64,000 bases of DNA, from assembly GCA_031414595.1 (NCBI GenBank), contig JANNVX010000106.1, positions 1 through 64,000 of the forward strand, given 5' to 3'. The position numbers were made by a program, and so were the translations under genes. Numbering within the stretch: the first letter of the stretch is position 1; every line of letters starts with the position of its first letter. The stretch comes from Deinococcales bacterium. Its GTDB lineage: Bacteria; Deinococcota; Deinococci; Deinococcales; JAAFIG01. Below are positions 1 through 64,000 of the stretch, piece after piece. The notes beneath the pieces are model-generated. The model saw only the letters and a list, made by a program, of their open reading frames with translations. It did not search any database and had not been told where the DNA came from.

Positions 1-32
1 ACCATAAACACGCACCTGACGGGCATGGTCGC
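1..32 (-). repeat. GCGACC...GGTCAAGAA mini-element, copy A (cut by window edge)
   Basis: The reverse complement reads GCGACCATGCCCGTCAGGTGCGTGTTTATGGT, matching the copies at 53460, 62097 and 62166. It abuts GTAGGGACAG (33-42, minus strand). Confidence 0.8.
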
Positions 33-93
33 CTGTCCCTACAAAAAGGGCATAAAAATGTATTTTGTAGGGGCGAACCCCCGTGTTCGCCCT
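33..93. repeat. Back-to-back pair of GTAG-type REP-like hairpins
   Basis: CTAC at 39-42, a spacer, then GTAGGGGCGAAC-CCCCGT-GTTCGCCCT at 67-93. Same layout as 53403-53505. Confidence 0.75.
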
Positions 94-163
94 GCTTTTC
101 TGATATTCGGTTCTAGGATTTTGGACTTTTCGGAGGCTCTATGGCATAGGTCATTTTGTTGCG

Positions 164-204
164 TACCACTCGAGGCGCTGGGCGTTCTACCACTCGAGGC
201 GCTG
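164..204. repeat. 17-bp direct duplication at the 3' end of the aldo/keto reductase gene
   Basis: TACCACTCGAGGCGCTG at 164-180 and 188-204 (period 24). Confidence 0.85.
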
Positions 205-1179
205 TTTAGACCAACCACTCGAGTTCAAAAAATTCGCCACCGCACTGCCAGTTGGCACAAGCGCATCACAAGCAATTCGGAGTTCGTCGGATAAATTCAT
301 CTCGAGGACAGGCAAGTAATTTTGTAATTGTTCTACAGTGCGCGGTCCAATAATTGGTGCTGTCACACCCGCTTGGTCTTTGACCCACAGCACCGCCAAT
401 TGCACAGGGTCATAGCCATGTTCCCGAGCCAAAGCCACAAACGCATTACCGATACTAACGGCTTTTTGATTCACGCGGTCAGCGTAAATCCCGCCGCGCA
501 GCACCGCCCTAGAGTCTTTACTTGGGTTTTCGTAACGCCCTGCCAGCATTCCCATTGCCAAAGGTGACCACGGCAATATCGCCAAATTGTATTTTTGTGC
601 CATTGGCAAAAGCTCGTTTTCAATGCGTCGGTCAAGTAAATTGTACGGTGGTTGTTCTGAAACAAATTGCACCCAATTTTTGGTTTGCGCTATATGTATT
701 CCCTCGAGAATCCGCCAAGTCGGAGCGGTACTGCACCCGATATAACGCACCCAACCACGCTGTACCAAATCATTGAGTGCCGACAGGGTTTCTTCGAGTG
801 GGGTATCATCGAGTCGGTGCAACTGGTACAAATCAATATACTCTGTACCTAAGCGCTTTAGGCTGTCCTCACAGGCTTTAAGAATATGTTTTCTCGAGTT
901 TCCACGGTCATTTGCGCCAGTCCCTGTTGGGTAATGCACTTTTGTGGCAATTACTGCTTGGTCACGGCGTTTTAACTGTTTTAAGGTCTGCCCAAGAATT
1001 CGTTCGGCTTCGCCATTTTTGTAACTGTTGCTGGTGTCAAATAAATTGATTCCCGCGTCCAGTGCTACCCTAATCATTTGCGCCGACTCGAGTTCGGAAG
1101 TGGGATTGAGGAAATTATCTGTTCCCAAAGCCAGAGGAGCAATCCGAACGCCAGTACGACCAAAAGCACGGTAATTCAT
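187..1179 (-). CDS. Aldo/keto reductase
   Basis: [45 protein letters not shown] and WSPLAMG motifs. Confidence 0.93.
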
Positions 1180-1213
1180 GGCTAAGTATACTCAATCCTA
1201 GTGAGTTATTCGG

Positions 1214-1241
1214 CTATGAGCTATGAGTTATGAGCCATGAG
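1214..1241. repeat. Heptamer tandem repeat (YYATGAG)x4
   Basis: CTATGAG CTATGAG TTATGAG CCATGAG; a related array lies at 26112. Confidence 0.8.
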
Positions 1242-1304
1242 AAAAATTGTCCTAGACGTTATACTGAAGAAAATTCAAACTGTATCTGCACATCAAAAAA
1301 TCCG

Positions 1305-1862
1305 CTAGACAGCTAAATCCTCTTGATAATTGGCATTCAAAAACAACTGGCTCGAGAAATACGGCTCGAGTTCTGCCGATTCAACAATCCGCACTGAAAG
1401 TGCATCGGTGTTCTGCCACCAAGCAGTCAATCTTAACTGCTCTCGAGACAAAGCAGCTTGTACCAACCCCAAACAATTTTTTGAATATATCGCCGCCAGA
1501 GGCTCGAGTTGCTCGTTTTTATTTTTTGGAATGACAATATCTGCTTCAAACTGCCCAAGAAACTGCCAGTAAGCAGCACTTAAATTTGGCATATCACAAG
1601 CCATGACTGCTACCCTGTCCGACAAAGCAGACTCGAGGGCTGTTGCAAGCCCGTAAAGCGCTCCCGCAAATGGTTTTTTGTCTTTTATTACTCGAGCCGA
1701 AGTTTGCACCGCCTGACCAATCACCAGCACATCTTCAAGGGAAGAAAAACTCGAGAGCGCCCACTCGAGCAAAGTCCTGCCTTGCCAGATAAATTCGGCT
1801 TTATGGCTTCCAAAACGGCTCGAACGCCCTCCAGTTAGCACAGCCCCAGACAAACCCTTCAT
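1305..1862 (-). CDS. mobA: Molybdenum cofactor guanylyltransferase
   Basis: VLTGGRSSRFGSHKA, ACDMP, EPLAAIY and FLNANY motifs. Confidence 0.88.
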   Translation of the reverse strand: MKGLSGAVLTGGRSSRFGSHKAEFIWQGRTLLEWALSSFSSLEDVLVIGQAVQTSARVIKDKKPFAGALYGLATALESALSDRVAVMACDMPNLSAAYWQFLGQFEADIVIPKNKNEQLEPLAAIYSKNCLGLVQAALSREQLRLTAWWQNTDALSVRIVESAELEPYFSSQLFLNANYQEDLAV

Positions 1863-2569
1863 TTTTTGCTAATCACAAAAGCCAGTAAGGTTGTACCAGC
1901 CGTCCAAAAAAATTGCCTGACCAAATGCGGAATTAAATTACTGTCATCCCATGCAAATAAGCTCGGCATGACCGCCACCGCCACTTGCGAAAAACTCGAG
2001 CAGGCAAAAGCAATCGAAAGACTGCGTAAAACCCGTCCGATGCTTCCGCCAGCGAAATCTTGGCTTTGCATAATGAATAAACTGGTCAAAAATAAACCTG
2101 TGGTTTGATAAACGATTCTAAGTATTGGTGGTTGAAACAAAATAATAAACAAGACAGACAGCAAAATCGCTATCGCTGCCGCAATCAGAATAATTTGCAA
2201 GGCAAAACCTTTTTTGTACATCCCTTGTCGCTCGAGCAGTAAAGGCAAAGCAAGACTGGCAAGCAAAAAAATCAGTGCGCCAAGAATACTTAAAGGTGAC
2301 TCGAGCAGAGAACCCAGCCCAGTTAGCACTGCCAAATCAGATAAGCCAATAATCAGCATCCCAATAGAAAATCCTAAAATCGTTTGTTGCCATGCTTTTG
2401 GGGTGCGGGTGGAAATTAAGTAAAGTAAATAGACTGCTAGAAAATCGGTGGTGATTGTACCCAGTAAAAGTATCATGCGCTGGTCAGTGATTGCCCCAAC
2501 GAACAGGAAACCCCAAGTTACTAAAATAAAAATCCATTGCAACGGCGGAACTGTCCGAACAATTTGCAT
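1859..2569 (-). CDS. Hypothetical multi-pass membrane protein
   Basis: About 7-8 hydrophobic segments. Its stop overlaps the mobA start, and a TAGTAT box precedes the ATG. Confidence 0.75.
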   Translation of the reverse strand: MQIVRTVPPLQWIFILVTWGFLFVGAITDQRMILLLGTITTDFLAVYLLYLISTRTPKAWQQTILGFSIGMLIIGLSDLAVLTGLGSLLESPLSILGALIFLLASLALPLLLERQGMYKKGFALQIILIAAAIAILLSVLFIILFQPPILRIVYQTTGLFLTSLFIMQSQDFAGGSIGRVLRSLSIAFACSSFSQVAVAVMPSLFAWDDSNLIPHLVRQFFWTAGTTLLAFVISKK

Positions 2570-2603
2570 ACTTTAGATACTAACAAAATGATAAACTAAA
2601 GAT

Positions 2604-3551
2604 GTGGCACTGGCTTTGGTTGGCAATGCGTTTTTGATTCACGAAGCGGCAAGGGCTTATTTGCTTAAGCGCCAAATTTCGCTTCGGGATGTGCCTTGGT
2701 TGGACGAGGAATTAAACGAAATCATTGTCTCGCCGCATTTACAAGGTGGTTTATTTGGGGCTGCCAATCTGGTCTTGGACTTGGGCAACACCAAAGACTA
2801 CAAAAGTATCACTGACCTCGTTGCCACCGCCCCAGATGCTGTTGTGGTGCTGTTAGACCCTGAAAACTGGACGAGTTCTGAATCCAGTGCTGAGGTCATG
2901 CGAAAGAAAAAAGCCCAAGAAGCCAGAGCCAAGCATTACGAAAAACTTGGTTTTGAACTGCTCGCCTTAGCCACCCCAACCAAAGGGGGATTGATTGCAT
3001 GGGTGACAGACCGCGCTAAAAAAATGAAACTAGCCCTCGAGAAAGACGTACCTAAATTACTGGCGGATACTTTCCCAGACGAACTTGCCAGTATTGCCAG
3101 TGAACTCGAGAAACTGAGTTTGCTGGATGTTAAACTAGACCTTGCGACCGTCACAAAAGTGGTCAACGCGGTTCAACCCACCACGATGTTTGTGGTGACT
3201 GATGCGCTTGTGGCACGTAAACCCAAAGAAGCATGGGAACACTTAGAACGTCTACTGAACACAGGCGAAGATGCCTTTAAGCTGCTTGGCGCACTCCAAG
3301 GGCATTATGGGTTACTGGCAAGGGCTTACGCCCTGAAAGCCCGCGATGGCGTGGTCAATGCAAAAGAAGCCGCCAAGACTTTAGCGGTTCATGAATTTCG
3401 CGCCCAGAAAGCCCTAGAAGCCACACGGCGTTATAAAGAAAGTACAGTGCGCCGCGAACAAAAGCTATTGCTTGAAGCCGATGCGGGTATGAAAAGCGGA
3501 CTCGAGCCACGGCTGACCTTAGAGCGCCTAATTCTCGAGTTGTGCGTGTAG
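2604..3551 (+). CDS. holA: DNA polymerase III delta subunit
   Basis: ASELEKLSLL, LLEADAGMKSG and LERLIL motifs; size is typical of HolA. Confidence 0.85.
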   Translation: MALALVGNAFLIHEAARAYLLKRQISLRDVPWLDEELNEIIVSPHLQGGLFGAANLVLDLGNTKDYKSITDLVATAPDAVVVLLDPENWTSSESSAEVMRKKKAQEARAKHYEKLGFELLALATPTKGGLIAWVTDRAKKMKLALEKDVPKLLADTFPDELASIASELEKLSLLDVKLDLATVTKVVNAVQPTTMFVVTDALVARKPKEAWEHLERLLNTGEDAFKLLGALQGHYGLLARAYALKARDGVVNAKEAAKTLAVHEFRAQKALEATRRYKESTVRREQKLLLEADAGMKSGLEPRLTLERLILELCV

Positions 3552-3652
3552 AAGTTTTACAGCTAACCTTGGTATTTGCCTCGAGCCACACAACAGGCGA
3601 ATAGTTACAGATTAAACACTTTTGGCAAGTAGAGACTGTGCTAAAGTCTTTT

Positions 3653-4705
3653 ATGCTTGAACAACTCAGACAAAAACTAGCTCACCTCGAGTTAGATGGC
3701 ATTTGGATTGCTAAACCCGAAAATATCCGTTACTTATCTGGCTTCACTACCCCAAAAGATGCCAAGTTACTGGTCACACAAACCCAAGTGCAACTCTATA
3801 CCGACCCGCGTTACACCGTCCAAGCCAAAGCAGAATCGCTTGTCCCCTTTCATATTGCCCGTTTTGAAGCGGTCTATGAACATGCCAAGCAATTTACGGC
3901 TGGTAAAAAAATTGGTTTTGAAGCCGATGCAGTGCTGTACTCGAGTTATGAAGCCTTGTCCGAACACCTTGGCGCAAACTTACAAAGTGTGATTGATGTC
4001 ATCGAACCAATGCGGGTTAGTAAAAATCTCGAGGAAATCAGTCATATCCGCCAAGCCGCTCAGATTGCTGATCAAGCCCTAAACACCATGCTGCCCAAAT
4101 TAAAGGCTGGCATAACTGAACGAGACTTTGCCCTCGAGCTAGAATTTGAAATGCGAAGACACGGTGCGGACAGTGCCGCCTTTGAAATCATCGTTGCCAG
4201 TGGCGAACGCAGCGCCATGCCACACGGCACAGCCAGTTCTCGAGCCATGCAGAATGGGGATTTGGTGACCATAGATTGGGGCGCAGCCCTAAATGGCTAC
4301 CATTCGGACTGTACCAGAGCCTACCCAATTGGCGAAATATCAGACCAGTTAAAACAGATGTATAACGCGGTACTCGAGGCGAACTTACTGGCAATTAGTC
4401 ATGTTAAAGCAGGCGTAGGTTGCAAAGAACTCGATACCATTGCCCGTGATTACTTAAAAACCCAAGGGTACGACGAAGCCTTTGCCCACAGCCTTGGGCA
4501 TGGGGTCGGGCTTGCGATTCACGAAGCCCCAACCTTATCGCAACGTGCCGAAGACACTGCGGTTCTCGAGGTTGGCACAATTGTGACGATTGAACCGGGC
4601 GTGTATCTCGAGGGCATCGGTGGGGTGCGAATCGAAGATTTGCTGTTGGTCACCCAAAGTGGTTGCGAAATCTTGACCCAGTTGCCTAAGACTGTAATGC
4701 TCTAA
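3653..4705 (+). CDS. Xaa-Pro aminopeptidase (M24 family)
   Basis: NIRYLSGF, HSDCTR, HSLGHGVGLAIHE, TIEPG and GVRIED motifs. Start is either ATG 3653 or GTG 3638. Confidence 0.93.
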   Translation: MLEQLRQKLAHLELDGIWIAKPENIRYLSGFTTPKDAKLLVTQTQVQLYTDPRYTVQAKAESLVPFHIARFEAVYEHAKQFTAGKKIGFEADAVLYSSYEALSEHLGANLQSVIDVIEPMRVSKNLEEISHIRQAAQIADQALNTMLPKLKAGITERDFALELEFEMRRHGADSAAFEIIVASGERSAMPHGTASSRAMQNGDLVTIDWGAALNGYHSDCTRAYPIGEISDQLKQMYNAVLEANLLAISHVKAGVGCKELDTIARDYLKTQGYDEAFAHSLGHGVGLAIHEAPTLSQRAEDTAVLEVGTIVTIEPGVYLEGIGGVRIEDLLLVTQSGCEILTQLPKTVML

Positions 4706-4777
4706 GCGGTTTTGTGATTGCACCCCGAGGCGTATTTACGGCTGTTCAAGTTGGCTTTCTCGAGCTACAATAAGCAC

Positions 4778-5131
4778 ATGGCATCAAAAACCCCTAAAAA
4801 TGTGGATGTGGATATTAACAAAGACGTAATCACTGGAATTGCCAGCATTGCCCTCGAGGGTGTGCAAGGTGTTGTGCCAGTCTCACCGCCGTTACAACTG
4901 GGCGAGTTTTTCAATGGCAAGCGCTTAAAAGGCATTAACGTCTCGAGGGATGGCAGTAATGTGACCGTGGATTTAAGTGTCAATGTGGATTACGGCAGGG
5001 TCATCCCCGATGTGGCAAAAGAAGTGCAACGCACGGTTGCCGAAAACATTGAAGTCATGACTGGTTTAAGTGTGCAGAGTGTCAATGTGACCGTACAAGG
5101 TGTGGTATTGCCTTTGGTTGCCAATGTCTGA
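4778..5131 (+). CDS. Asp23/Gls24 family protein
   Basis: VDLSVNVDYG..IPDVAKEVQ..V...IEVMTGL.V..VNV.V signature; conserved synteny with nusB-folD. Confidence 0.9.
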   Translation: MASKTPKNVDVDINKDVITGIASIALEGVQGVVPVSPPLQLGEFFNGKRLKGINVSRDGSNVTVDLSVNVDYGRVIPDVAKEVQRTVAENIEVMTGLSVQSVNVTVQGVVLPLVANV

Positions 5132-5696
5132 ACCGCTTATCCTGAATGGCAGTAATAAAGCCAGAGAACTTGCTTTTCGGGTCTTATTCTCGAGCGAACA
5201 AGGTAAACACAGCATCAACCAAGCATGGGTCGAAGCCAAACTCGATTTACAACACGCCCTAGATGATGCCCTAGACCCAGAAACCGAAGAAGGAATGCTC
5301 GAAGCCAGCGCGGAAAGCCTCAATCCCGAAGCCATCGCCTTTGCCCATCGTTTGCTTTTGGGTTACGACGAACACCGCGACCATGTGGATCAAAGTTTGC
5401 AACGGGTGATTGAAGGTTGGACGTTTAGCCAAATGAGCCAAACCGACCTCGCGATTTTGCGCCTCGCCAGTTTTGAAATCTTGCACTTGGCAACCCCAGC
5501 CGCCGTCGCCATCGAAATTGCGGTGCGCCTAGCCAAACGTTACGGTGGCGACGACTCGAGCAAATTTGTCAATGGTGTGCTGGCGAAACTGCTTGACCAA
5601 GAAGCCCCAGCCGAAAAACGTGAAAAACGCGGACGGAAACAGGAGAAGAGGATAAAAGGCGAAAGGCAAAGGGCGAAGGGCGAAGGTGCTTCGTGA
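5124..5696 (+). CDS. nusB: Transcription antitermination factor NusB
   Basis: ARELAFRVLF, DLAILRLA, AVRLAKRYG and FVNGVLAKL motifs. Confidence 0.93.
   Translation: MSEPLILNGSNKARELAFRVLFSSEQGKHSINQAWVEAKLDLQHALDDALDPETEEGMLEASAESLNPEAIAFAHRLLLGYDEHRDHVDQSLQRVIEGWTFSQMSQTDLAILRLASFEILHLATPAAVAIEIAVRLAKRYGGDDSSKFVNGVLAKLLDQEAPAEKREKRGRKQEKRIKGERQRAKGEGAS
5655..5689. repeat. Heptamer tandem repeat (AARGGCR-like)x5 inside the nusB 3' end
   Basis: AAAGGCG AAAGGCA AAGGGCG AAGGGCG AAGGTGC. Confidence 0.7.
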
Positions 5697-6559
5697 CTCA
5701 AACACTTATTTTAGATGGCAATGTGGCGGCTGCCGCCCTGCTCGAGAAAGCCAAGTCAGAAATGGCGTTGTTATCGGTGATTCCTCATTTGCATGTGATT
5801 CGGATTGGCGATGACCCCGCCAGTGTTTCTTATACACGCTTAAAGGCACGTCGGGCTAAAAAAATTGGCATGGACAGCACTTTGACCGAATTACCAGCCG
5901 AAACATCAGAAAGCACCTTACTCGAGTTGATTCAAACCCTGAATGCCGACTCCAAGACCCACGGAATTTTGGTGCAGTTACCTTTCCCTAAAAACTCGAG
6001 CATCCGCGAGACTGTGGTTTTGGGGGCGATTGACCCTAATAAAGATGTAGACGGGCTGCATGTGGTCAACACTGGGCGGCTTTGGGCTGGACAAGTCGGC
6101 TTACGAAGTTGCACCCCAGCCGGCATTATCTCGATGCTCGACCATTACGGGGTTGCACTCGAGGGCAAGCGCGTGGTGATTATCAACCGTTCGCAACTGG
6201 TCGGTAAGCCGTTAGCTGCCATGTGCTTAGAGCGTAATGCGACTGTCACCATTGCCCACTCGAGAACCAAGGATTTAGCGGCGGTGGCACGCGAAGCTGA
6301 TGTGCTGGTGACGGCGGTCGGACGGGTTAATTTTATCACCCCAGAATTTGTGCAAACGGGCGCAGTGGTGATAGATGTCAGTGTCAACCGTATTTTTGTG
6401 GACGGAGAAGAAAAATTAGTTGGCGATTGTACTCCCGAAGTTGCTGCTGTCTCGAGTGCGATTACCCCTGTGCCGGGTGGGGTTGGACCCATGACGGTTT
6501 CGCATTTGTTGTACAACACGGTTTTGGCTGCCAAAATGCAGTCTGAAAACCAAGGCTAA
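5693..6559 (+). CDS. folD: Bifunctional methylene-THF dehydrogenase/cyclohydrolase
   Basis: HGILVQLP, KDVDG, CTPAG, VGKP and TPVPGGVGPMT motifs. Confidence 0.96.
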   Translation: MTQTLILDGNVAAAALLEKAKSEMALLSVIPHLHVIRIGDDPASVSYTRLKARRAKKIGMDSTLTELPAETSESTLLELIQTLNADSKTHGILVQLPFPKNSSIRETVVLGAIDPNKDVDGLHVVNTGRLWAGQVGLRSCTPAGIISMLDHYGVALEGKRVVIINRSQLVGKPLAAMCLERNATVTIAHSRTKDLAAVAREADVLVTAVGRVNFITPEFVQTGAVVIDVSVNRIFVDGEEKLVGDCTPEVAAVSSAITPVPGGVGPMTVSHLLYNTVLAAKMQSENQG

Positions 6560-6570
6560 ACTGATTTTTT

Positions 6571-6607
6571 CCATGAAATTCCCGTATGTCATGCGGGAAT
6601 TTCATGG
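6571..6607. terminator. Long hairpin after folD
   Basis: Inverted repeat CCATGAAATTCCCG ... CGGGAATTTCATGG. Confidence 0.6.
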
Positions 6608-6659
6608 TTATTTGTTTTCTCGAGCGAAAAGCCGCCCTTTCTCGAGGTAGAATTGCTGT

Positions 6660-8012
6660 ATGAATCCAACTTGGGATACCGAACGGCTTTTGGCTCTGGA
6701 CTTAGCACATATTTTGCATCCAGTCACGAATTTGCATCGCCACGCCAAAACTGGAGCTTTGATTTTAACCAAAGGCGAAGGGACAAGGGTTTGGGACAGC
6801 ACAGGAAAATCCTACCTTGATGGTTTTGCCGGACTCTGGAATATCAACGTTGGACACGGACGCAGTGTGCTTGCCGAGGCAGCCAAAACCCAGATGAACA
6901 GCTTGGCTTTTGCGCCAAATTTCTTTGGTTTAGCCACCCCACCCAGTATTGAATTGGCAGCTAAACTGGCGCAAATCGTACCGGGCAGTATCAATCATTT
7001 TCAGTTCACCTCGGGCGGCTCAGAAAGCAACGAAACAGCGATTAAAATTGCTCGGTATTTCTGGGCAATTCAAGGACAAAGCCCAAAAATCAAAATTATC
7101 TCGAGACACAATGCCTACCACGGGATTGGTGGCTTAACCACAACCGCCACAGGTATGCCAGCCTACTGGAAAGATTTTGGTCCACCTGCGGCTGGTTTTT
7201 TGCACGTCAGTAGTCCAAATTTTTATCGCAGCAACCCAAATAATCTGGGGGCTGATGCTTTTATTGTCAGTCTCGAAGCCGAACTCGAGGAGACGATTCT
7301 TAAAGAAGGCGCAGACACGATTGCCGCATTCTTGGGTGAACCGACCCAAGGGGCAGGTGGGGTTTGCCCTGCGCCAGACGGCTACTGGCAGATGATTCGT
7401 AAGGTTTGCGATAAGCACCAGATTTTGCTGATTGCTGATGAGGTGATTACCGGTTTTGGGCGTTCAGGCAAGATGTTCGGCATAGAGACTTACAATTTTG
7501 CCCCAGATATTCTTTGTGTGGCTAAAGGCATCACCAGTGGCTATATTCCACTTGGGGCAGTTGGTGTGAGCGACGCGATTTATTCAGAAATGATTAAACC
7601 AGACCGAATGTTTATGCACGGCTTTACTTACTCGGGGCATCCAGTGGCGTGTGCTGTGGCGCTCGAGAACATTAAAATTCTCGAGACGGAAAATTTGTCC
7701 GAAAATGCTCGAGTGCGTGGCTTAGAACTGCTTGAACAGATGCAAAGTGTGCTGGCGCATCCAAACGTTGGCGATGTTCGCGCCAAGGGTCTGATGATGT
7801 TGATTGAAGTGGTGCAAGATAAGGTGAGTAAAGCTGCTTACCCACCATTATCCATCGGTGGCAAACTCCAAGCAGCTACAAGAAAACGCGGTTTGATTGT
7901 GCGTTGTGGTGATAATGGTATTGCCATTGCGCCACCTTTGACCATTTCAAAAGCCGAAATCTCAGAGATTGTTGGGATTGTGACCGAGAGCTTAGATGAA
8001 GCCTTTGCCTAA
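6660..8012 (+). CDS. Class III PLP-dependent aminotransferase (omega-transaminase-like)
   Basis: GLWNINVGHG, SGGSESNE, AYHG, IADEVITGFGRSG, AKGITSGY and HGFTYSGHP motifs. Confidence 0.93.
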   Translation: MNPTWDTERLLALDLAHILHPVTNLHRHAKTGALILTKGEGTRVWDSTGKSYLDGFAGLWNINVGHGRSVLAEAAKTQMNSLAFAPNFFGLATPPSIELAAKLAQIVPGSINHFQFTSGGSESNETAIKIARYFWAIQGQSPKIKIISRHNAYHGIGGLTTTATGMPAYWKDFGPPAAGFLHVSSPNFYRSNPNNLGADAFIVSLEAELEETILKEGADTIAAFLGEPTQGAGGVCPAPDGYWQMIRKVCDKHQILLIADEVITGFGRSGKMFGIETYNFAPDILCVAKGITSGYIPLGAVGVSDAIYSEMIKPDRMFMHGFTYSGHPVACAVALENIKILETENLSENARVRGLELLEQMQSVLAHPNVGDVRAKGLMMLIEVVQDKVSKAAYPPLSIGGKLQAATRKRGLIVRCGDNGIAIAPPLTISKAEISEIVGIVTESLDEAFA

Positions 8013-8872
8013 ATTTCTAAGCGCTCCTTGATTTGGGGGAGCATGGCATTGGTGCGAGCAAAACCGGCTTCAAAAAGGGCTTGGGATTGTCCATATTCAA
8101 ATGCGCCTCCGGGTAAATCACCGAGCGGTAAAATCAAATCCGCCCTACTCAAGCTGGTACGGCGTAAGGCATCCCTCGAGATATGAGCGCTTCGCAAAAT
8201 CACATCCAGCGCGGTTTTAGGGGCAATGGCTGGGGTGCTTTCGTCACCAACATCGACTGCCATGACCACGGCTTGGGGGGCAATTTCTCGAGCCACACTG
8301 ACCGGCACATTCTCGAGGACATGACCATCCACCAAGAAGCGTCCAGCAATTTGCACTGGGGCAAAGACCCCCGGAATGGCACTCGAGGCAAGGGCAGCTT
8401 CAAGCATCGAACCCTCACGCAGAATCACCCGCTCGCCAGTCATGATGTCCACCGCTAAAAAAGCCATTGGAATCGGCGAATCTTCAAACCGCGCCCCACC
8501 AATCAAGGCAATTAAACTAGAACGAAGCGGTTCGGCACTGACCAAACCAGCCCCAAAAACTCCGCCACGAATCACTTTTTCCCAGCCAGCTACAGTTTTA
8601 CTAAAAGCATCGAGTGGATTTGGATTTTTAGGCGGATGAAATAAATACTCGAGTTCGGCGTAGCCCAAACGCCCAATCTGCTCAAGTTTTTGAAAGGTCT
8701 GATTTCGCGCTTCTGGTGCGGCTCGAGTAAACAGCATCGCCGCAATTGCACCGCTTGATGTTCCAGCGATTGCCACAACTGGAATTTGGGCTTGTTCGAG
8801 GGCTAGAAGCACCCCAAGATGAGCGCAACCGCGAACACCACCGCCAGATAAAGCAAGAGCCAAGGCTTTCAT
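8009..8872 (-). CDS. Patatin-like phospholipase
   Basis: LSGGGVRG, GTSSG nucleophile elbow, ASSAIPG and VDG motifs. Confidence 0.9.
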   Translation of the reverse strand: MKALALALSGGGVRGCAHLGVLLALEQAQIPVVAIAGTSSGAIAAMLFTRAAPEARNQTFQKLEQIGRLGYAELEYLFHPPKNPNPLDAFSKTVAGWEKVIRGGVFGAGLVSAEPLRSSLIALIGGARFEDSPIPMAFLAVDIMTGERVILREGSMLEAALASSAIPGVFAPVQIAGRFLVDGHVLENVPVSVAREIAPQAVVMAVDVGDESTPAIAPKTALDVILRSAHISRDALRRTSLSRADLILPLGDLPGGAFEYGQSQALFEAGFARTNAMLPQIKERLEI

Positions 8873-8919
8873 AGCTCACGGTAACACCTTATGGTGATTC
8901 GTGTGTAGAATGCTAGGCG

Positions 8920-10521
8920 ATGAAGTGGTTTGTTCAATTTTTAACATTGATTGCTTTGGTTCTTGCCAGCAGCGCAAGCGCCCAACTAATCAATACGCAA
9001 CGTGTCGCACAACGCAATTTTGCCGATTGCCAAAAGTTCTTTTTGCAGCTTAGCGACCCCATTACCGCCGAAAGTCAGTGCCGAAGCGCGGTACAGTACG
9101 ACCCAGAGACCGCCGCTTATCACCGTTTGTTTGCTCGAGTGCTTTTAGAACTTGGTAAATACCCAGAAAGCAGCAGCAGCCTTGGTAATGCCCGAGCTAA
9201 AGGGACTATCGCCGAGGATGACGCTATCGAAGCTGAAATTGCCTACCGACAAAATAATTGGGAAGCCACGATTGCCTCAGCTTCTCGAGTCACCATTGCG
9301 CCAGCCGATGTCAAACTGCGAGCCTACAAGGTACTGGGTTTAGCCCAAAAGCGCCTATCGCGTTTTGATGAAGCCTTAGCAACCTTTAAGCAAGCGGTGC
9401 AACTGATTCCTAGTGATGTGCTTTCGCGCCGAGAACTCGCCGATTTATACCTTAAAAACGAACCGCGTCGGGCTTTGGCGGTCTTGACTGAAGCCCCGAT
9501 TAAACCTGTGCCATTACTCGCCGATTTAGGGCGTGTACAGTGGATTACAGGTGACTTAAAAAATGCAATTCGTACCCTCGAGTCGGTGGCTTCTAAACCC
9601 AAAGCCTTTAATGCCCAAGAACGCACCACTTATCAAAAAGCCCTTGGCGCGTTGGCATACGCTTATTTTGGTCAGGGACGCTTTGCCGATGGTCAACAAG
9701 TCATGAATCAAATGGATTCAGGAGGCAATTGGTTTGGTTTATTTATTTCGCGCACTTTACCGTGGCTGATGGGTATTGTGCTGCTTTTAGTGCTGCATCT
9801 GATTGGTGAATCCCGAATTGAGCCGTTATCCACTATCGAAATCCTAGATGGTCCACGTCCTTGGTCGGTTGGCACAGCCTATGCTTGGTTAATCATCAGT
9901 ATTTTAGCAGGCGGGATTGCTGCGCTTTTTGTGGGCAACCTGATGTTTGGTAATTTCTTTGCGATTCTTACGCCCTATCAATCTGGGGTTGCGACCGATA
10001 CATTCTTAATTGTCATGACCCTGACGATGTTGCTGCTCAGTTTCCAAACCGCCAAAACCAACGAATGGAAACTTAATCAAGTGCTGTTTGGTAAAGCCAG
10101 CCCCGAAAGCATGGCAGAAGGGATTGCGGCTGGTTTATTGCTGGTTGGGCTGGCAGTAGGCTACCAATTTGGGATTCGGCAACTTGGTGGTTCTGGCTTT
10201 TTTACCGATGTCTTAAATTGGCGTGTCTCGCTGATACTTTTGGTTTTAATTGTACCGCTCTCAGAGGTTTTCTTTCGGGCATTTGCTTTATTCCCACTCG
10301 AGAAACGGTACGGCACCGTTATCGGCTCGAGTATTGCGGTGACGCTTTTTGCCCTGTGTTTTGTTGCCCCAATGCCGCTTTTATTGCTGCATGGCGGAGT
10401 TCTGGTTTTTGTGGCAGTTCGAGCCAAAAGCACTGTACCCACCATGCTCGCCCAAGGGATTTTTCTGGTTGGCTTACTGACTTGCCTTGCCTTGATACCA
10501 GCCATTCGCAATTGGTTCTAA
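8920..10521 (+). CDS. Signal peptide + TPR repeats + C-terminal CPBP/CAAX-protease-like membrane domain
   Basis: N-terminal signal (ASASA), TPR-like helices, then about 8-9 TM segments with a degenerate LSEVFFR motif. Confidence 0.75.
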   Translation: MKWFVQFLTLIALVLASSASAQLINTQRVAQRNFADCQKFFLQLSDPITAESQCRSAVQYDPETAAYHRLFARVLLELGKYPESSSSLGNARAKGTIAEDDAIEAEIAYRQNNWEATIASASRVTIAPADVKLRAYKVLGLAQKRLSRFDEALATFKQAVQLIPSDVLSRRELADLYLKNEPRRALAVLTEAPIKPVPLLADLGRVQWITGDLKNAIRTLESVASKPKAFNAQERTTYQKALGALAYAYFGQGRFADGQQVMNQMDSGGNWFGLFISRTLPWLMGIVLLLVLHLIGESRIEPLSTIEILDGPRPWSVGTAYAWLIISILAGGIAALFVGNLMFGNFFAILTPYQSGVATDTFLIVMTLTMLLLSFQTAKTNEWKLNQVLFGKASPESMAEGIAAGLLLVGLAVGYQFGIRQLGGSGFFTDVLNWRVSLILLVLIVPLSEVFFRAFALFPLEKRYGTVIGSSIAVTLFALCFVAPMPLLLLHGGVLVFVAVRAKSTVPTMLAQGIFLVGLLTCLALIPAIRNWF

Positions 10522-11863: not shown

Positions 11864-12491
11864 GCCAATTGCAAACAGCCTCGGCTAAAACTCGAGGCTC
11901 GAGGCAAGCGTTTAACGAAAGAATAGGAATGGTTTTTCTTAGGGTTTCTAAGCTAGGCACGACACTCTTTAAGTAAAACTGATAACGGTTGGCAATGCCT
12001 GATGGTGTATCGTCGGCTCGTCCCCTGAGCAGTAAACGGCGCTGCATTTCTAAAAAATCAAGTTCTAAATGCACCACGCCAAGACACGGAATCTGTTGTT
12101 GTTTTAGTGCCTCGAGTAAGTGTGTAGCGGCGGCTGGGCTGCGCGGGTAGCCATCAAACGCCCAGAGCAACTTAGGCGAAATATGAGCCAATTCGTTTTC
12201 GACAATGCTTTGCGTCCACATATCGGGGATTAACAAACCTGTTTGCAGCGCATGAGCTAAAAATGCGCTGCGGCTCGAGAACCCATTGGGGATTTCACCA
12301 CTTAATTCAGACTCGAGACTTGGATGAGGTTGTCTAGCACGAAGTAAATCACCCATGCTCAGGTGTGCTTCTATTTGTTTTGCCTCGAGTAGCGTATTTG
12401 CCAATGTGCCTTTGCCACTGCCACTTGCGCCGAGAATAAAAAAAACGCCTTGAGGTGCTAAGGCGTTTGGGGTTTGGAGTTCGGTTGTCAT
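11850..12491 (-). CDS. Adenylate kinase-family NMP kinase (short lid)
   Basis: GASGSGKGT P-loop, HLSMGDLLR, DGYPR and RGRADD motifs. Start placed at ATG 12491 to avoid overlap with the upstream gene. Confidence 0.82.
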   Translation of the reverse strand: MTTELQTPNALAPQGVFFILGASGSGKGTLANTLLEAKQIEAHLSMGDLLRARQPHPSLESELSGEIPNGFSSRSAFLAHALQTGLLIPDMWTQSIVENELAHISPKLLWAFDGYPRSPAAATHLLEALKQQQIPCLGVVHLELDFLEMQRRLLLRGRADDTPSGIANRYQFYLKSVVPSLETLRKTIPILSLNACLEPRVLAEAVCNWLNRR

Positions 12492-13060: not shown

Positions 13061-13092
13061 GCTTAGAGTCTACTCTTTGTTATGCTGTGCGT

Positions 13093-36491: not shown

Positions 36492-36528
36492 AAAAAAATC
36501 CCCCTCGAGTCTCGAGGGGGATTTTTTT
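36492..36528. terminator. Bidirectional terminator built from two CTCGAG
   Basis: Perfect palindrome AAAAAAATCCCC-CTCGAG-T-CTCGAG-GGGGATTTTTTT. Confidence 0.85.
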
Positions 36529-36624: not shown

Positions 36625-39510
36625 GTGAGTACACTTGTAATTGTTGAATCGCCAGCCAAGGCGAAAACCATTGGGAAATTCCTTGGGCGTGGTTATGTGG
36701 TCGAGTCCAGCTTTGGTCATATTCGTGATTTGCCCAAAGGTGCGGATGAAGTCCCAGCCAAGTACAAAGGCGAGGCTTGGGCAAGACTTGGCTTAAACAT
36801 CGAAGCGGGGTTCGAGCCACTCTATATTGTCAGTGCCGAGAAAAAAGCCCAAGTTGCCAAACTAAAAGCCCTTGCCAAAGACGCGACCGAAATTATTCTG
36901 GCGACCGACGAAGACCGTGAAGGCGAAGCGATTGCCTGGCATCTGTTTGACGAGTTAAAACCAAAAGTGCCAGTCAAACGGATGGTTTTTCATGAAATTA
37001 CCAAAGAAGCCATTGACCACGCCATTTCGCACCCTCGAGCGATTAACACCAACATGGTTCAAGCCCAAGAAACCCGTCGTGCCTTAGATAGGTTATACGG
37101 CTATGAAGTTTCGCCTGTTCTTTGGAAAAAAGTCAGACCATCTCTCAGCGCTGGACGAGTCCAGAGCGTGGCAACACGCTTAATTGTTGAACGCGAACGC
37201 GAACGCATGAGTTTTGTACCAAGCGCTTGGTGGGACATCGAAGCCCAATTTAGCACCGCCAAAAACGAACGTTTCCCCGCGACACTCTACGAACTGAACG
37301 GTAAACGCCTTGCTTTGGGTAAGGATTTTGACTCGAGCGGCAAGTTTATCGGCGAAGGTAAAGTCGTGCGGCTTGATGAAACCCAAGCTCGAGAACTCGC
37401 CCAAGCCCTGCGCGGTGTGCCGTTTGGTGTCCTCAGCACCGAAGAAAAACCATTTACCCAACGCCCCTATGCACCATTTATCACCAGTACCTTGCAACAA
37501 GAAGGAGCGCGTAAACTCGGCTTTGGCACACAACGTACCATGCGAACTGCCCAGCGCCTGTACGAGGGCGGCTACATCACCTATATGCGTACTGACAGCA
37601 CCAACCTCTCCAAAGAGGCACTGAGTGCGGCTCGAGCGCAAGTGGTGGACTTATACGGACAAGAATACCTGCACCCCACACCACGCACCTACGAGAAAAA
37701 AGTCAAAAATGCTCAGGAGGCACACGAAGCCATCCGCCCAGCCGGTGAGCGTTTCCGTACCCCGCAAGAGGTGCGAGCCGAACTAGGCGACGATGAATTT
37801 AAGATTTACGACCTGATTTGGAAACGCACCGTGGCTTCGCAAATGGCAGATGCTCGAGGACGCAGGCTCTCGGCGCGAATTGGCGGGACTGCCACCGATG
37901 GGCAGAGCGCCGTGTTTAATGCCACTGGTAAAGTGATTGATTTTGCGGGCTTCTTACGCGCCTACGTCGAAGGTTCAGACGACCCAGAAGCCGCCCTCGA
38001 GGATAAAGAAGTGATTCTGCCAGCATTAAATGCCAAAGACCCAGTACGCGCCGAAAAACTCGAGCCAAAAGGTCACAGTACCCACGCTCCAGCCCGTTTT
38101 ACCGAAGCCAGTTTGGTGCAAGGACTCGAGGAACGCGGCATTGGCAGACCCAGCACCTATGCCAGTATTATTCAAACGATTCAAGATAGGGGTTACGTCT
38201 TTAAGCGCGGACAAGCTCTGATTCCGACTTTCACTGGTTTTAGTGTGGTGCAACTGCTCGAGCAGCATTTTAGTCAGTTGGTGGATTATGGTTTTACCGC
38301 CCGAATGGAAGACGACCTTGACCATATTTCGATGGGTGAGCAAAAGCGCATCCCGTATCTCGAGAAGTTCTACTCGAGCGAAAACGGCTTAAAAAACCAA
38401 ATAGATTCTCGGCTCGAGTCCATAGACCCAAGGGTGGTTTGTGCTGTCCCCGTGCCGCAGCTTGCTAACAGTGGTATCGAAGTACGGGTTGGGCGTTATG
38501 GACCATTCCTTAAACGCGGCGAAGAAAACGGCAATATCCCCGATGACCTTGCGCCCGACGAACTGAGTTTAGAAAAAGCCGAAGAATTACTCAGTAAGAA
38601 ATCCAGTGACCGAATTATTGGTATTGACGGCCAAACCAATCAAAATGTCTATGCCAAAAACGGACGTTTTGGTCCTTATGTACAACTGGGCGAAACTGGC
38701 ACACCGACACTTAAAAATGCTTCGTTATTTCCAACGGATAAACTCGAGGAACTCAGTCTCGAGCGAGCCATGTTGTTACTTTCCCTGCCTCGGCACGTCG
38801 GTGACTTGGAAGGCGAAGAAGTCTGGGGTTACAACGGCAAGTTTGGACCTTACCTGAAAAAAGGCAAGGACTCGAGAAGCCTGACCCGTCACGATGAACT
38901 GTTTAGTGTCAGTATCGAAGAAGCGGCTGGCATTTTTGCCCAACCCAAAACACGCGGACGCGGCACACCCAAAGAACCCGTCCAACGTTTTGAATACCCA
39001 GACCGAGCGCCGATAAACTTGCTTGATGGACGGTTTGGACTGTACTTATCGGACGGCGAACTGAACGCTTATCTGCGCCGCGAAGATAACGCCCAAGCCC
39101 TTGATGCGGCTTCGGTTCGCAGTATCTTTGAAGAACGTGGCAAACCGCCAAAAGCCAAAGCTGCTAAAGTTTTGACCAGCAAAAAAACGGCTGCCGCGCC
39201 AAAAGCTGCTAAAGCTGCAACCAAAAAAGCCAGCAGTAAAAAACCAGCCGCCAAGAAAAAAACCGTCAGTAAAACCACCAAAGCCGACGCGCCCGCTAAG
39301 GAAAAACCACTTTGGGCAGACCTCGAGCCATTCACCAAAGAATTTGACCCGACTACCGCCCAACTCTTAAAGCTGATTAACGGCGAACGAATTCCGATGG
39401 CAGATGCAGCCCAAAAACTCCGCATCAGCCCAGAAGATGCAATGAGTCGGTACAGAGCCAGTAATTTTAAGTTGTATAACTTGTATAGAAAAGCAAAAGT
39501 GGCTGTTTAA
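36625..39510 (+). CDS. topA: DNA topoisomerase I with Topo_C repeats, Lys/Ala-rich tail and terminal HTH-like domain
   Basis: VIVESPAKAKTI, ATDEDREGE, SAGRVQS, GYITYMRTDS, EAHEAIRP and GIGRPSTY motifs; GRYGP/GRFGP repeats in place of Zn ribbons. Confidence 0.97.
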   Translation: MSTLVIVESPAKAKTIGKFLGRGYVVESSFGHIRDLPKGADEVPAKYKGEAWARLGLNIEAGFEPLYIVSAEKKAQVAKLKALAKDATEIILATDEDREGEAIAWHLFDELKPKVPVKRMVFHEITKEAIDHAISHPRAINTNMVQAQETRRALDRLYGYEVSPVLWKKVRPSLSAGRVQSVATRLIVERERERMSFVPSAWWDIEAQFSTAKNERFPATLYELNGKRLALGKDFDSSGKFIGEGKVVRLDETQARELAQALRGVPFGVLSTEEKPFTQRPYAPFITSTLQQEGARKLGFGTQRTMRTAQRLYEGGYITYMRTDSTNLSKEALSAARAQVVDLYGQEYLHPTPRTYEKKVKNAQEAHEAIRPAGERFRTPQEVRAELGDDEFKIYDLIWKRTVASQMADARGRRLSARIGGTATDGQSAVFNATGKVIDFAGFLRAYVEGSDDPEAALEDKEVILPALNAKDPVRAEKLEPKGHSTHAPARFTEASLVQGLEERGIGRPSTYASIIQTIQDRGYVFKRGQALIPTFTGFSVVQLLEQHFSQLVDYGFTARMEDDLDHISMGEQKRIPYLEKFYSSENGLKNQIDSRLESIDPRVVCAVPVPQLANSGIEVRVGRYGPFLKRGEENGNIPDDLAPDELSLEKAEELLSKKSSDRIIGIDGQTNQNVYAKNGRFGPYVQLGETGTPTLKNASLFPTDKLEELSLERAMLLLSLPRHVGDLEGEEVWGYNGKFGPYLKKGKDSRSLTRHDELFSVSIEEAAGIFAQPKTRGRGTPKEPVQRFEYPDRAPINLLDGRFGLYLSDGELNAYLRREDNAQALDAASVRSIFEERGKPPKAKAAKVLTSKKTAAAPKAAKAATKKASSKKPAAKKKTVSKTTKADAPAKEKPLWADLEPFTKEFDPTTAQLLKLINGERIPMADAAQKLRISPEDAMSRYRASNFKLYNLYRKAKVAV

Positions 39511-59267: not shown

Positions 59268-59272
59268 TTCTT

Positions 59273-62096: not shown

Positions 62097-62133
62097 GCGA
62101 CCACGCCCGAAGGTGCGCGTATGTGGTCAAGAA
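62097..62133 (+). repeat. Mini-element copy E
   Basis: GCGACCACGCCCGAAGGTGCGCGTATGTGGTCAAGAA. Confidence 0.85.
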
Positions 62134-62165
62134 AAGGAGTAAGGACAGCGTATCTCACGCTGGAA

Positions 62166-62205
62166 GCGACCCAAGCCCGTCAGGTGCTGCTTTAAGGGTC
62201 AAGAA
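62166..62205 (+). repeat. Mini-element copy F
   Basis: GCGACCCAAGCCCGTCAGGTGCTGCTTTAAGGGTCAAGAA. Confidence 0.85.
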
Positions 62206-62310
62206 TGACAGAATTGACGTTTTTCTGGAAATTCTAAAATGAAAGCGTGAGATACTTAATTCTCCTCGAGTGACCCAAACCCTGATAGACTGTTTTTGGA
62301 GGATTCACCC

Positions 62311-62691
62311 ATGCCAAGAGATATTTTTGCTTCCGCTAACGCCCCAGCCGCCATTGGACCGTATTCCCAAGGGGTTCGTACCAAACTCGGGTTTATTTAC
62401 TGCTCTGGTCAAACACCGATAGACCCCGCTACAGGCGAACTTGTGGCTGGTGGAATAACCGAACAAACCGAACAAGTTTTTAAGAACATTGTAGCGGTAC
62501 TTGCTGCCACAGATAAAACCTTAGATGATGTTTTTAAGTGCAATGTTTATTTATCGGATATGGCAAATTTTAGCGCGATGAACGCAGTTTACGGCACTAA
62601 ATTTGTTGCCCCGTACCCCGCCCGTACCACCATTGCAGTGCGTGAATTGCCAAAGTCTTGTTTGGTCGAAATCGAAGTGATTGCCGAATAA
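62311..62691 (+). CDS. ridA: RidA/YjgF enamine-imine deaminase
   Basis: APAAIGPYSQG, SGQ, MNAVY, PART and VEIE motifs; RBS GGAGG. Confidence 0.92.
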   Translation: MPRDIFASANAPAAIGPYSQGVRTKLGFIYCSGQTPIDPATGELVAGGITEQTEQVFKNIVAVLAATDKTLDDVFKCNVYLSDMANFSAMNAVYGTKFVAPYPARTTIAVRELPKSCLVEIEVIAE

Positions 62692-62731
62692 AACCCATGC
62701 GGGTAGATTTACGGCGTTTACCAGTATTTAA

Positions 62732-62783
62732 CCTCGAGAAACAAGGTCGTGATGATTTTGCCATTACCTTGTTTGGCTCGAGG
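62732..62783. other. Intergenic hairpin closed by two CTCGAG
   Basis: CCTCGAG-AAACAAGGT ... ACCTTGTTT-GG-CTCGAGG. Confidence 0.55.
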
Positions 62784-62907
62784 ACATATCGCTTTTCAAA
62801 TTAACAGTAAAACAAACCATAAAAATAAAATACAGGATTAAGCATGTACTCGTTCCCAAGCGGCACAAGTTTTGACCCACTCATCTTTTTAGGCTATCCT
62901 CGTTTAT

Positions 62908-63570
62908 ATGCGCGAGAAACTGACATCCCAAGCCGAAGATTACTTGAAAGCACTTCATACTTTCGAGCAGGCAGGTAAGGTCAGCACCCAAGTTCTGGCT
63001 GACCACCTTGGGGTTGCGCCTGCCAGTGTCACCCAAATGCTTAAAAAATTAACCGAAATGGCACTTGTCACCCATGCACCGTACCAAGGCGCGACCCTGA
63101 CCGATGCTGGACGCAAAATTGCACTGGAACTGATTCGCCATCATCGTTTACTCGAGACCTATTTGCATCAAGCCCTTGGCTACGCCCTGGAAGATGTTCA
63201 TGATGAAGCCGAAAAACTCGAGCATCATATTTCTGAGGACTTTGAAGCCCGAATTAATGCGGTCTTGGGCAATCCCACCCACGACCCACATGGTTCTCCG
63301 ATTCCGCGCTTAGATGGTAGCTTACCGCCATATGCAACAAGGGCTTTATCGGATGTAAGGGTTGGTGAAGCGGCTCGGATTGGCAGAGTCAGCGAAACCG
63401 ACCCTGATTTTTTGCGCTTGGTGGTTCAACTGGGTTTGATTCCTGGTGCAGAATTAAAAGTGCTTGAAGTCAACTTGGCGGCTGGCACAATCACGCTTAA
63501 ACTCGAGTCGGACACCCATATTCTTGGCTTAGACGCAGCCAAGCGCCTTTGGGTGGATAATTTTAGTTAA
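62908..63570 (+). CDS. DtxR/MntR-family metalloregulator with FeoA domain
   Basis: EDYLK, ASVT.MLKKL, RHHRLLE.YL, HDEAEKLEH and DPHG.PIP motifs. Confidence 0.94.
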   Translation: MREKLTSQAEDYLKALHTFEQAGKVSTQVLADHLGVAPASVTQMLKKLTEMALVTHAPYQGATLTDAGRKIALELIRHHRLLETYLHQALGYALEDVHDEAEKLEHHISEDFEARINAVLGNPTHDPHGSPIPRLDGSLPPYATRALSDVRVGEAARIGRVSETDPDFLRLVVQLGLIPGAELKVLEVNLAAGTITLKLESDTHILGLDAAKRLWVDNFS

Positions 63571-64000
63571 AGCCTAAATGTTTTAGAACAACAGCTAAGT
63601 CATCTGGTTTGTCCACATCAAAGCCAATTTCTGCATACTCGGTCATCAAGGCTTGAGCAGGTACACCCAGAATTCTCGAGACGGTATTTTCAAGTTCGGT
63701 TTTACGCAGTTGCCCAATCAGTAGTTTCAGCAGCGCCCCAATACCAAACATACCCGCCAATCGAATCACATTTTTGCGGTGTCTAAGAACATATTCAAGC
63801 CGTGGCAAAAAGGCATCTATCAAGTGTGGCTCGAGTAAAAATAAATTCCCACCTGTAAAAGTCCCCTCCCTTAAACGGGCATAGGTGCGTTTACCTCCGG
63901 GGAAAGCCCGTTCAGCTGCGACTTTAGACACCACAGGATAGACCAAGCCAACACCAGCGTCTTTTTGCAAAATGTCCTGCACTGCGGCTTGACTAAGAAG
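63563..64000 (-). CDS. Nucleotidyltransferase (MobA/GT-A-like) family protein, 5' end outside the window
   Basis: The frame is open to the window edge; RTY..L.EG.FTGGNL and GFDVDKP.DL motifs. Confidence 0.65.
   Translation of the reverse strand, partial: LLSQAAVQDILQKDAGVGLVYPVVSKVAAERAFPGGKRTYARLREGTFTGGNLFLLEPHLIDAFLPRLEYVLRHRKNVIRLAGMFGIGALLKLLIGQLRKTELENTVSRILGVPAQALMTEYAEIGFDVDKPDDLAVVLKHLGFN

Follow-up and report, generated by a model that had tools for sequence, protein, structure and literature searches.

A stretch of 64,000 nucleotides from the genome of a Deinococcales bacterium (contig JANNVX010000106.1 of assembly GCA_031414595.1, positions 1 to 64,000), here called the window, raises the question of why a single six-base palindrome, CTCGAG, recurs along its whole length, and what sort of process creates or keeps it there. 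An earlier reading made without database searches (the sequence-only reading) had likened the word to HIP1, the highly iterated palindrome (HIP) of cyanobacteria. We found that CTCGAG does belong to the HIP class, as a true highly iterated palindrome that is fixed across a family of uncultured Deinococcales. The window contains 345 copies (1..64000; a mean of one per 186 bases), compared to a mean of 6.8 (standard deviation 2.5, maximum 15) in 100 dinucleotide-preserving shuffles, in keeping with the several hundred copies that had been anticipated. The start of the window (1..5000), where the copies had been counted, holds exactly the 34 or so that had been claimed, running from 169-174 to 4942-4947 and including those listed at 169, 193, 218, 301, 703, 893, 1087, 1351 and 1365; about one copy had been thought to be expected here, and base composition gives about 1.1. 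By crude gene calls, the copies of the window fell in frames 0, 1 and 2 of plus-strand genes (112, 48 and 57) and of minus-strand genes (57, 12 and 30), with a further 29 outside called genes, so that all three frames, both strands and intergenic DNA are represented as had been described, and at least one copy was present in 59 of the 61 called genes.

The source genome of the window (G000, in which the window's contig is C106) comprises 4,488,778 bp in 120 contigs, the longest of 305 kb, with a GC content of 47.2% and a completeness of 94%, the metagenome-assembled genomes of the family ranging from 57% to 94%. CTCGAG occurs in it 23,235 times, that is, 5.18 times per kb at a mean spacing of 191 bases, and is its most abundant hexamer by threefold; every hexamer ranked second to seventh is one that overlaps it, and AAAAAA, with 5,616 copies, leads the independent ones. 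The expected count was 972 under a zero-order model, 534 to 1,281 under first- and second-order Markov models and 293 to 346 under Markov models with the word masked, giving an excess of 24- to 70-fold, where about 15-fold across the genome suffices to place a short palindrome in the HIP class. A maximal-order Markov model of the unmasked genome was discarded because CTCGAG dominates its own sub-words.

An excess of this kind could follow from bias in codons, dipeptides or base composition, or from a longer repeat or mobile element carrying the word, and the finding that 52% of the copies of G000 lie in the frame that reads Leu-Glu speaks for such an origin. This explanation is refuted by the behavior of the word outside that frame and under codon control. 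In the 3,865 genes of G000, taken as crude longest open reading frame (ORF) calls, CTCGAG was present 12,083, 3,988 and 4,301 times in frames 0, 1 and 2, with 2,853 copies between genes, and its density was 5.15 per kb in coding versus 5.34 per kb in intergenic DNA, where the enrichment was 58- to 60-fold. When codons were permuted inside each gene, a synonymous shuffle that retains the proteins, the dipeptides and the codon usage of every gene, 10 shuffles yielded 1,952 to 2,088 copies compared to 20,418 observed in coding DNA, i.e., about 10% were retained, which bears out the claim that codon bias is insufficient. Leu-Glu dipeptides were spelled CTCGAG in 12,104 of 20,172 cases (60%), and CTC made up 64.8% of Leu codons ahead of Glu versus 7.9% elsewhere; the word occupied 4,001 of 8,582 potential contexts in frame 1 and 4,313 of 11,762 in frame 2. 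Measured against codon usage outside the word, the log-odds of occupancy were 4.49 in frame 0, 3.43 in frame 1, 3.64 in frame 2 and 4.07 between genes; one near-uniform bias per site of about e^4 (30- to 90-fold odds) fits every context. Leu-Glu was also the highest of all dipeptides in its ratio of observed to expected occurrence (2.23), indicating that protein sequences have been shifted by the bias towards CTCGAG.

The flanks of the word proved uninformative, holding at most 0.026 bits per position over 10 positions on either side, and no dispersed repeat of the repetitive extragenic palindromic (REP) or miniature inverted-repeat transposable element (MITE) type was detected, there being no conserved sequence beyond the hexamer in those positions. 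Spaced forms, CTC-N(k)-GAG, were enriched at k = 0 only, and the gaps between copies were near-exponential (coefficient of variation 0.99 at a mean of 191) apart from a three-base ripple due to coding, a pattern that again speaks against a longer repeat. The favored unit is the exact contiguous hexamer, free of flanking context. The excess outlasts control for codon and dipeptide usage and is not confined to one reading frame, and apart from CTCGAG and its overlapping words no hexamer of G000 exceeds 4.2 times its zero-order expectation.

In order to place the word phylogenetically, 121 genomes of the order were sampled, of which 19 genomes in five genera, including G000, make up the family of the window. 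All 19 carry 4.3 to 6.8 CTCGAG per kb, and the reversed word GAGCTC is nearly absent, with 0 to 25 copies in 15 of them. Among eight genomes of a Meiothermus-like genus (2.4 to 3.8 Mb), 3,336 to 9,836 CTCGAG were found versus 882 to 1,634 GAGCTC, an enrichment of approximately 5- to 10-fold compared to the 24- to 70-fold of G000; one of the eight, Meiothermus ruber by the names given to its proteins, has 7,570 versus 1,239, which confirms the remark in the sequence-only reading that the word is frequent in Meiothermus. In 16 genomes of a Thermus-like genus (about 2.2 Mb) the counts of CTCGAG and GAGCTC were equal, and in 26 genomes of a genus presumed to be Deinococcus each genome held 40 to 942 CTCGAG, i.e., the word is avoided. 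The trait is therefore graded across the order, being extreme in the family, moderate in the Meiothermus-like genus, absent in the Thermus-like genus and reversed in the Deinococcus-like genus. In two members of the family from another genus, g3 (loci L335 and L350, samples of 5 to 10 kb), the GC content is 53 to 58%, versus 47 to 50% in the genus of the window, and CTCGAG stands at 15 to 19 times expectation, so the word persists across a shift in base composition.

To determine how the word fares over evolutionary time, 35 to 47 kb of the window were aligned to two genomes of the same genus, G005 (6.7% divergent) and G001 (8.1%), and to the more distant G003 (20%). CTCGAG was kept in place in 226 of 250 cases (90.4%) against G005, 200 of 221 (90.5%) against G001 and 157 of 200 (78.5%) against G003; the corresponding values for all hexamers in the same alignments were 73.5%, 66.0% and 29.9%. 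Against G003, a fourfold-degenerate C had changed in 6 of 93 cases when it was the third letter of an in-frame CTCGAG, compared to 191 of 461 (before G) and 401 of 1,084 (not before G) outside the word. Likewise, the third base of GAG had changed in 7 of 95 cases inside the word and 45 of 95 outside, that of CGA in 5 of 36 and 29 of 57, and that of TCG in 2 of 47 and 19 of 72, and the comparisons with G005 and G001 went in the same direction at matched synonymous positions. Overall, synonymous positions inside CTCGAG change 4 to 6 times more slowly than matched ones, which means that each site is still being maintained by a force acting at the DNA level. CTCGAG is no relic, and all its sites are under continuing directional force. 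Together with the similar strength of the bias in all contexts and its presence in 19 of 19 family genomes, this upholds the earlier proposal of a genome-wide DNA-level process that creates or keeps the site. Parsimony on the trio of G000, G005 and G001 gave approximately 14 gains and 18 to 25 losses, which indicates turnover near equilibrium.

The losses seen between close genomes were mostly C-to-T changes at the cytosine of the CpG or at the first C, and to that extent they fit Vsr-type very-short-patch repair of deaminated 5-methylcytosine (compare Dcm and Vsr at CCWGG), which would over-correct T:G mismatches towards CTCGAG. We nevertheless disfavor this explanation as very improbable. 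The sequence-only reading had suggested looking for a Vsr-like gene and for a depletion of one-mismatch neighbors of the word, and neither was found: no match to Vsr (PF03852) was detected in G000, a genome that is 94% complete, and the transition neighbors stood at 1.1 to 2.1 times masked Markov expectation (CTTGAG and CTCAAG at 1.2 to 1.5 times, TTCGAG and CTCGAA at 1.4 to 2.1 times), a lack of depletion that argues against repair of this type. Furthermore, CpG was not generally hypermutable, with 17.0% changed versus 12.0% for non-CpG in the comparison with G005, and the methylation reported for relatives in the supplement of Blow et al. 2016 (PMC4752239) is of adenine, not cytosine.

Copies of the word repel each other at short range. 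Gaps under 25 bases were depleted to 0.48 of expectation, and genome-wide the start-to-start spacing of 6 occurred 0 times, 7 occurred 101 times, 8 occurred 17 times and 9 occurred 20 times; the absence of spacing 6 is explained by the fact that adjoining copies would create the avoided word GAGCTC. Pairs at spacing 7 (CTCGAG-N-CTCGAG), the closest tolerated in the genome, lay outside called genes in 20 of 101 cases, and the window has one at 11891..11903 and a second at 36504..36516, just upstream of the topoisomerase I gene topA. The correlation in occupancy between neighboring potential sites was −0.14, −0.085 and −0.028 in successive distance bins, negative below approximately 50 bases and slightly positive beyond 100 bases. 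Per gene, the density of CTCGAG was near-binomial, with a variance of z scores of 1.27 (1 being binomial).

These features bear on direct selection, in which each site would bind an abundant protein for chromosome organization, replication or segregation, much as Xu, Lawrence and Durand have read HIP1 in terms of nucleoid structure with an argument from conserved positions (PMC5861425). The sites are conserved in position well above background, their density is even across genes, and their short-range repulsion would suit a protein footprint. On the other hand, each of some 23,000 sites would need an effect able to alter proteins (Leu-Glu at 2.23 times expectation), there is no known candidate for the binding protein, and an island of 4.9 kb without a single site is tolerated. 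Taken together, we consider direct selection on binding sites distinctly unlikely.

In its general behavior, CTCGAG resembles HIP1 (GCGATCGC), which is described in PMC4390886 and PMC5861425 as a short palindrome in tens-fold excess, found in all frames and between genes, conserved in position and rare in imported DNA; PMC4390886 further describes one-off variants that are commonest at the outer positions and a link to methyltransferases without a nuclease partner. Our data show one-letter deviants of CTCGAG at 1.2 to 2.1 times masked Markov expectation at the outer positions, and inner transversions at 0.44 to 0.97, so that excess, frames, positional conservation and outer-position deviants are all as in the HIP class, and the proposal of a HIP1-like signal outside cyanobacteria stands. 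There are also differences. HIP1 is cyanobacterial, has eight letters and occurs about once per kb (PMC4390886), whereas CTCGAG belongs to Deinococcales, has six letters and occurs about five times per kb; HIP1 has been connected with a CGATCG enzyme, proposed by Elhai to be a cytosine methyltransferase, and a GATC enzyme, whereas the enzymes known from relatives for CTCGAG modify N6-adenine, and no family-conserved methyltransferase was found for it. A quasi-periodic distribution at 10 to 90 kb has been reported for HIP1. Since the host is a member of the Deinococcales and G000 holds only 3 copies of CGATCG, the word is an analogue of HIP1 and not HIP1 itself. Closer in form are the alternate hexameric HIPs GGCGCC (Calothrix PCC 7103) and GCCGGC (Oscillatoria PCC 10802), six-base palindromes at HIP-like frequency, each described in PMC4390886 as the fully palindromic form of the site recognized by a methyltransferase of the host. 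Those are sporadic in single strains, in contrast to CTCGAG, which is fixed in 19 of 19 genomes and five genera and graded across an order.

A second group of comparable words comprises the DNA uptake sequences of Neisseria (DUS) and the uptake signal sequences of Pasteurellaceae (USS), which are thought to accumulate through drive during transformation and for which uptake bias is proven. Like CTCGAG, they are genome-wide words found in all coding frames, with effects on proteins (PMC5861425), and core competence genes are present in the window's family (ComEC in 18 of 19 genomes, DprA in 18 of 19, the latter at 226 to 236 bits in 17 of 19). They differ in being non-palindromic words of 9 to 12 bases at about one per kb, whereas CTCGAG is palindromic, has six bases and no consensus in its flanks, and occurs 5.2 times per kb. 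The explanation to which we tentatively lean, at less than even confidence, is a fixation bias during DNA exchange that would act through a reader of CTCGAG, probably in its methylated form. A predicted protein would recognize the word, probably N6-adenine-methylated as in cultured relatives, during exchange between cells or between genome copies, be it by uptake, recombination or gene conversion, and alleles with CTCGAG would replace alleles without it. There is precedent in cyanobacteria, where methylated HIP1 raises natural transformation and a similar role has been proposed (bioRxiv 10.1101/2024.09.10.611283), and a role for HIP1 as a watermark for uptake is put forward in PMC13756078. In its fullest form, which we hold to be possible but doubtful, CTCGAG would be a family-wide 'self' watermark whose adenine-methylated form is read by the DNA-exchange machinery and which has multiplied by its own drive to roughly one copy every 190 bases, rewriting proteins on the way.

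That CTCGAG is methylated in the order is documented in the supplement of Blow et al. 2016 (PMC4752239), which lists N6-methyladenine at 99.5% of CTCGAG sites in M. ruber DSM 1279 (M.Mru1279II, Mrub_2385), 94.1% in M. chliarophilus (M.Mch9957IV) and 94.6% in Marinithermus hydrothermalis (M.Mhy14884I), with a nuclease partner listed for none of the three enzymes and no CTCGAG activity listed for M. silvanus. These enzymes thus share their word and their order with the window, and M. ruber is itself enriched in the word. In the M. ruber genome, we located an Eco57I/TaqI_C methyltransferase of 553 residues at 2.44 Mb, flanked by genes for an amidase and an ion exchanger, which from its position and protein accession is probably Mrub_2385. 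Relatives of this enzyme at 48% identity or more turned up in three other families (9 genomes, with a stop codon interrupting one copy); none was found in the 19 genomes of the window's family. CTCGAG methylation is a trait of the order, and the M. ruber enzyme is not what the hyper-abundant family shares. The three published enzymes were annotated differently by their depositors, so unrelated enzymes may supply CTCGAG specificity, and the word may be methylated in the family despite the negative result; the specificity of a methyltransferase cannot be read from its sequence.

Profile searches of G000 yielded approximately 24 DNA methyltransferase-like ORFs (5 C5, about 8 N6/N4, 1 D12, 5 Eco57I/MmeI-like and 6 N6_Mtase), on contigs C22, C18, C90, C98, C44, C12, C100, C48, C47, C11, C89, C104, C4, C41, C43, C1, C27, C62, C32, C67 and C64; none was on the contig of the window, consistent with the earlier remark that no responsible gene is visible there. 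Genomes of the family differ in their sets of methyltransferases. Those in G000 nearly all carry CTCGAG at the density typical of the genome, so these genes seem to circulate inside the lineage, and for the same reason the density of the word failed as a pointer to a long-resident methyltransferase. Several individual candidates for the driver were rejected. The TaqI-like methyltransferase on contig C89 is present in only 3 of 18 other family genomes. The TaqI_C methyltransferase of 663 residues on contig C4, whose stop codon is overlapped by an ORF of 246 residues of unknown family, has the look of an ordinary restriction-modification pair, and a similar score and ORF length were found in only about 5 other genomes. 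The N6 methylase of 634 residues in the single-contig family genome G033 is a type I HsdM with HsdS adjoining. Between hsdM and hsdS at this locus (L350, G033:C1:2184000-2194000), the ORF at 5839-6786 encodes a DUF5655 protein with a weak NucS_C-like match. No match to the XhoI nuclease family (PF04555) was found in G000, but 14 control genomes gave no match either, so this negative carries little weight.

The methyltransferases of the relatives also bear on Elhai's model for HIP, in which the word is the by-product, without a function of its own, of a methyltransferase-coupled repair ratchet: a CTCGAG methyltransferase would mark new half-sites in mismatches, and a methyl-reading nickase would steer mismatch repair to the strand bearing the word. 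In its favor, the bias works on individual sites with much the same strength in all contexts, interference is short-range only, and the CTCGAG N6-adenine methyltransferases of relatives have no listed nuclease partner. Moreover, the one-off variants number 2,603 per side at position 1 or 6, 1,604 at 2 or 5 and 1,786 at 3 or 4, the same outer-position excess that Elhai describes for HIP1 (PMC4390886). Set against these points, no conserved methyltransferase was found in the 19-genome family, a MutH-like or Vsr-like partner is not known here (Vsr was not found in G000), and the model as set out in PMC4390886 requires a methylated GC dinucleotide, which CTCGAG lacks, and predicts saturation at about one site per 1,000 bases, compared to one per 191 here with sites still conserved. 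We regard a repair ratchet as unlikely.

The abundance of CTCGAG is set in a genome that avoids nearly every other palindrome. The 63 other palindromic hexamers of G000 jointly stand at 0.33 of expectation, with approximately 34 below 0.1; GGGCCC occurs 0 times, TGCGCA 2, CGATCG 3, GACGTC 3 and GAGCTC 6 times, GGCC 152 times versus 13,951 expected, and GATC at 0.14. The degenerate sites GWGCWC/GDGCHC and GRCGYC are nearly absent too. In samples of 59 to 77 kb from G001, G005 and G003, the same avoidance was seen (observed/expected 0.28 to 0.31; one GGCC each). Among other words of G000 with the TCGA core, RTCGAY is scarce (ATCGAT 89, GTCGAC 26, and the non-palindromic ATCGAC 63 and GTCGAT 59), as is TTCGAA (29), while ATCGAA and TTCGAT are at normal levels of about 1,400; we know of no enzyme with the site RTCGAY.

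Such avoidance lends interest to a defensive role, in which, in a lineage exposed to extreme restriction pressure, dense and constitutively modified CTCGAG would shield resident DNA from a nuclease (compare Chi and RecBCD) or otherwise mark it as self. The approximately 24 methyltransferase-like ORFs, in a set that varies between genomes, fit this picture as well, and a palindrome this abundant in such a genome has to be immune to restriction itself. However, protection from restriction accounts for a near-expected count and not for one 24 to 70 times above it. The hosts of XhoI and PaeR7I-type systems, which recognize the same word, avoid or tolerate the site, whereas here it is the commonest hexamer. 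In addition, no nuclease of this kind was identified, and imported DNA without the word persists. The chance that defense explains the word appears slim.

The clearest case of such DNA is the longest CTCGAG-free stretch of G000, 4.9 kb at C46:36667-41608 (locus L351), which carries surface-polysaccharide genes at 30 to 36% GC, among them those for a family 2 glycosyltransferase, a flippase-like protein, a hexapeptide transferase and a DegT aminotransferase. The supposition that this stretch would be a ribosomal RNA operon was wrong, as there was no Rfam match; the island is evidently imported DNA, and newly imported DNA evidently lacks the word. Separately, four viral loci (L228, L213, L238 and L236; 65 to 69% GC) hold 9 to 18 CTCGAG in 2.6 to 4.4 kb with 0 to 1 GAGCTC, and they may come from phages that infect Meiothermus-like hosts and have the same word bias as the host.

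Several results weigh against the preferred explanation, fixation bias during DNA exchange. The bias of uptake or recombination towards CTCGAG is itself a predicted one in these organisms. Each site is conserved even though its neighbors lie about 190 bases away and interference reaches only about 50 to 100 bases, so models in which one site per fragment or per kb would do fit poorly, and a local mechanism that works site by site fits the dense, individually conserved sites at least as well as an uptake signal at the level of fragments. A stricter polarized count (G000, G005 and G001 with G003 as the outgroup) gave 18 losses versus 33 expected and 1 gain versus 0.17, on few events. No methyltransferase class or orthologue was common to all 19 family genomes: Eco57I-type enzymes (PF07669) were found in 17 of 19 (none in G033, a single contig, or G002), C5 enzymes (PF00145) in 17 of 19 (none in G010 or G002) and N6/N4 enzymes (PF01555) in 16 of 19 (none in G033, G050 or G002). 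D12 enzymes were present in 5 of 5 genomes examined, at 151, 127, 124, 33 and 32 bits, a spread that, unlike the narrow scores of DprA, shows them not to be one orthologue. The relatives of the M. ruber enzyme in the family are weak, at most 32% identical, and present in G000 and 4 of 18 others. Being near-universal, ComEC and DprA prove little by their presence, which is compatible with a role for exchange and no more. Finally, no phages of the family were recognized among the viral loci listed with three close CTCGAG (80 with flanks, almost all at 63 to 72% GC and unrelated).

Two genes of the window may be mentioned. The topoisomerase I ORF (topA, 36625..39510, plus strand; Pfam Topoisom_bac and Toprim) is a core gene, served as the marker for placing the organism and carries CTCGAG like the rest of the window; its product is 98% identical to a Deinococcales metagenome-assembled genome record, the next being Deinococcus marmoris at 63%. 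At 13087-15924 on the plus strand, amid housekeeping genes, a protein of 945 residues of the NB-ARC/TPR (STAND-type) class is encoded, possibly a defense or signaling NTPase.

No published report of CTCGAG as an iterated palindrome was found in the open-access papers and bioRxiv preprints searched. New in the present analysis are the test at matched synonymous sites, the finding that the log-odds are uniform in all contexts, the interference of sites over short distances, the negative outcome of profiling the family for methyltransferases, the graded occurrence within the order, the connection with published N6-adenine methylomes for CTCGAG and the avoidance of palindromes in general. The word distorts codon usage, dipeptide statistics and k-mer based binning and annotation of these genomes, and it provides a practical marker of native versus imported DNA in them. 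HIP1 has lacked an explanation since the 1990s and has been regarded as peculiar to cyanobacteria; CTCGAG is a second and denser case, in an unrelated phylum, whose force is measurable at a log-odds of about 4 per site and whose gradient across one order permits comparative tests that cyanobacteria do not offer. Competent bacteria of both phyla, the cyanobacteria and the Deinococcota, are reported to be polyploid. If CTCGAG is indeed a watermark read during DNA exchange, words of the HIP type would be general, having evolved independently in two phyla of competent bacteria, and not a cyanobacterial oddity, and M. ruber with its CTCGAG methyltransferase would be a culturable system for the 30-year-old HIP question.

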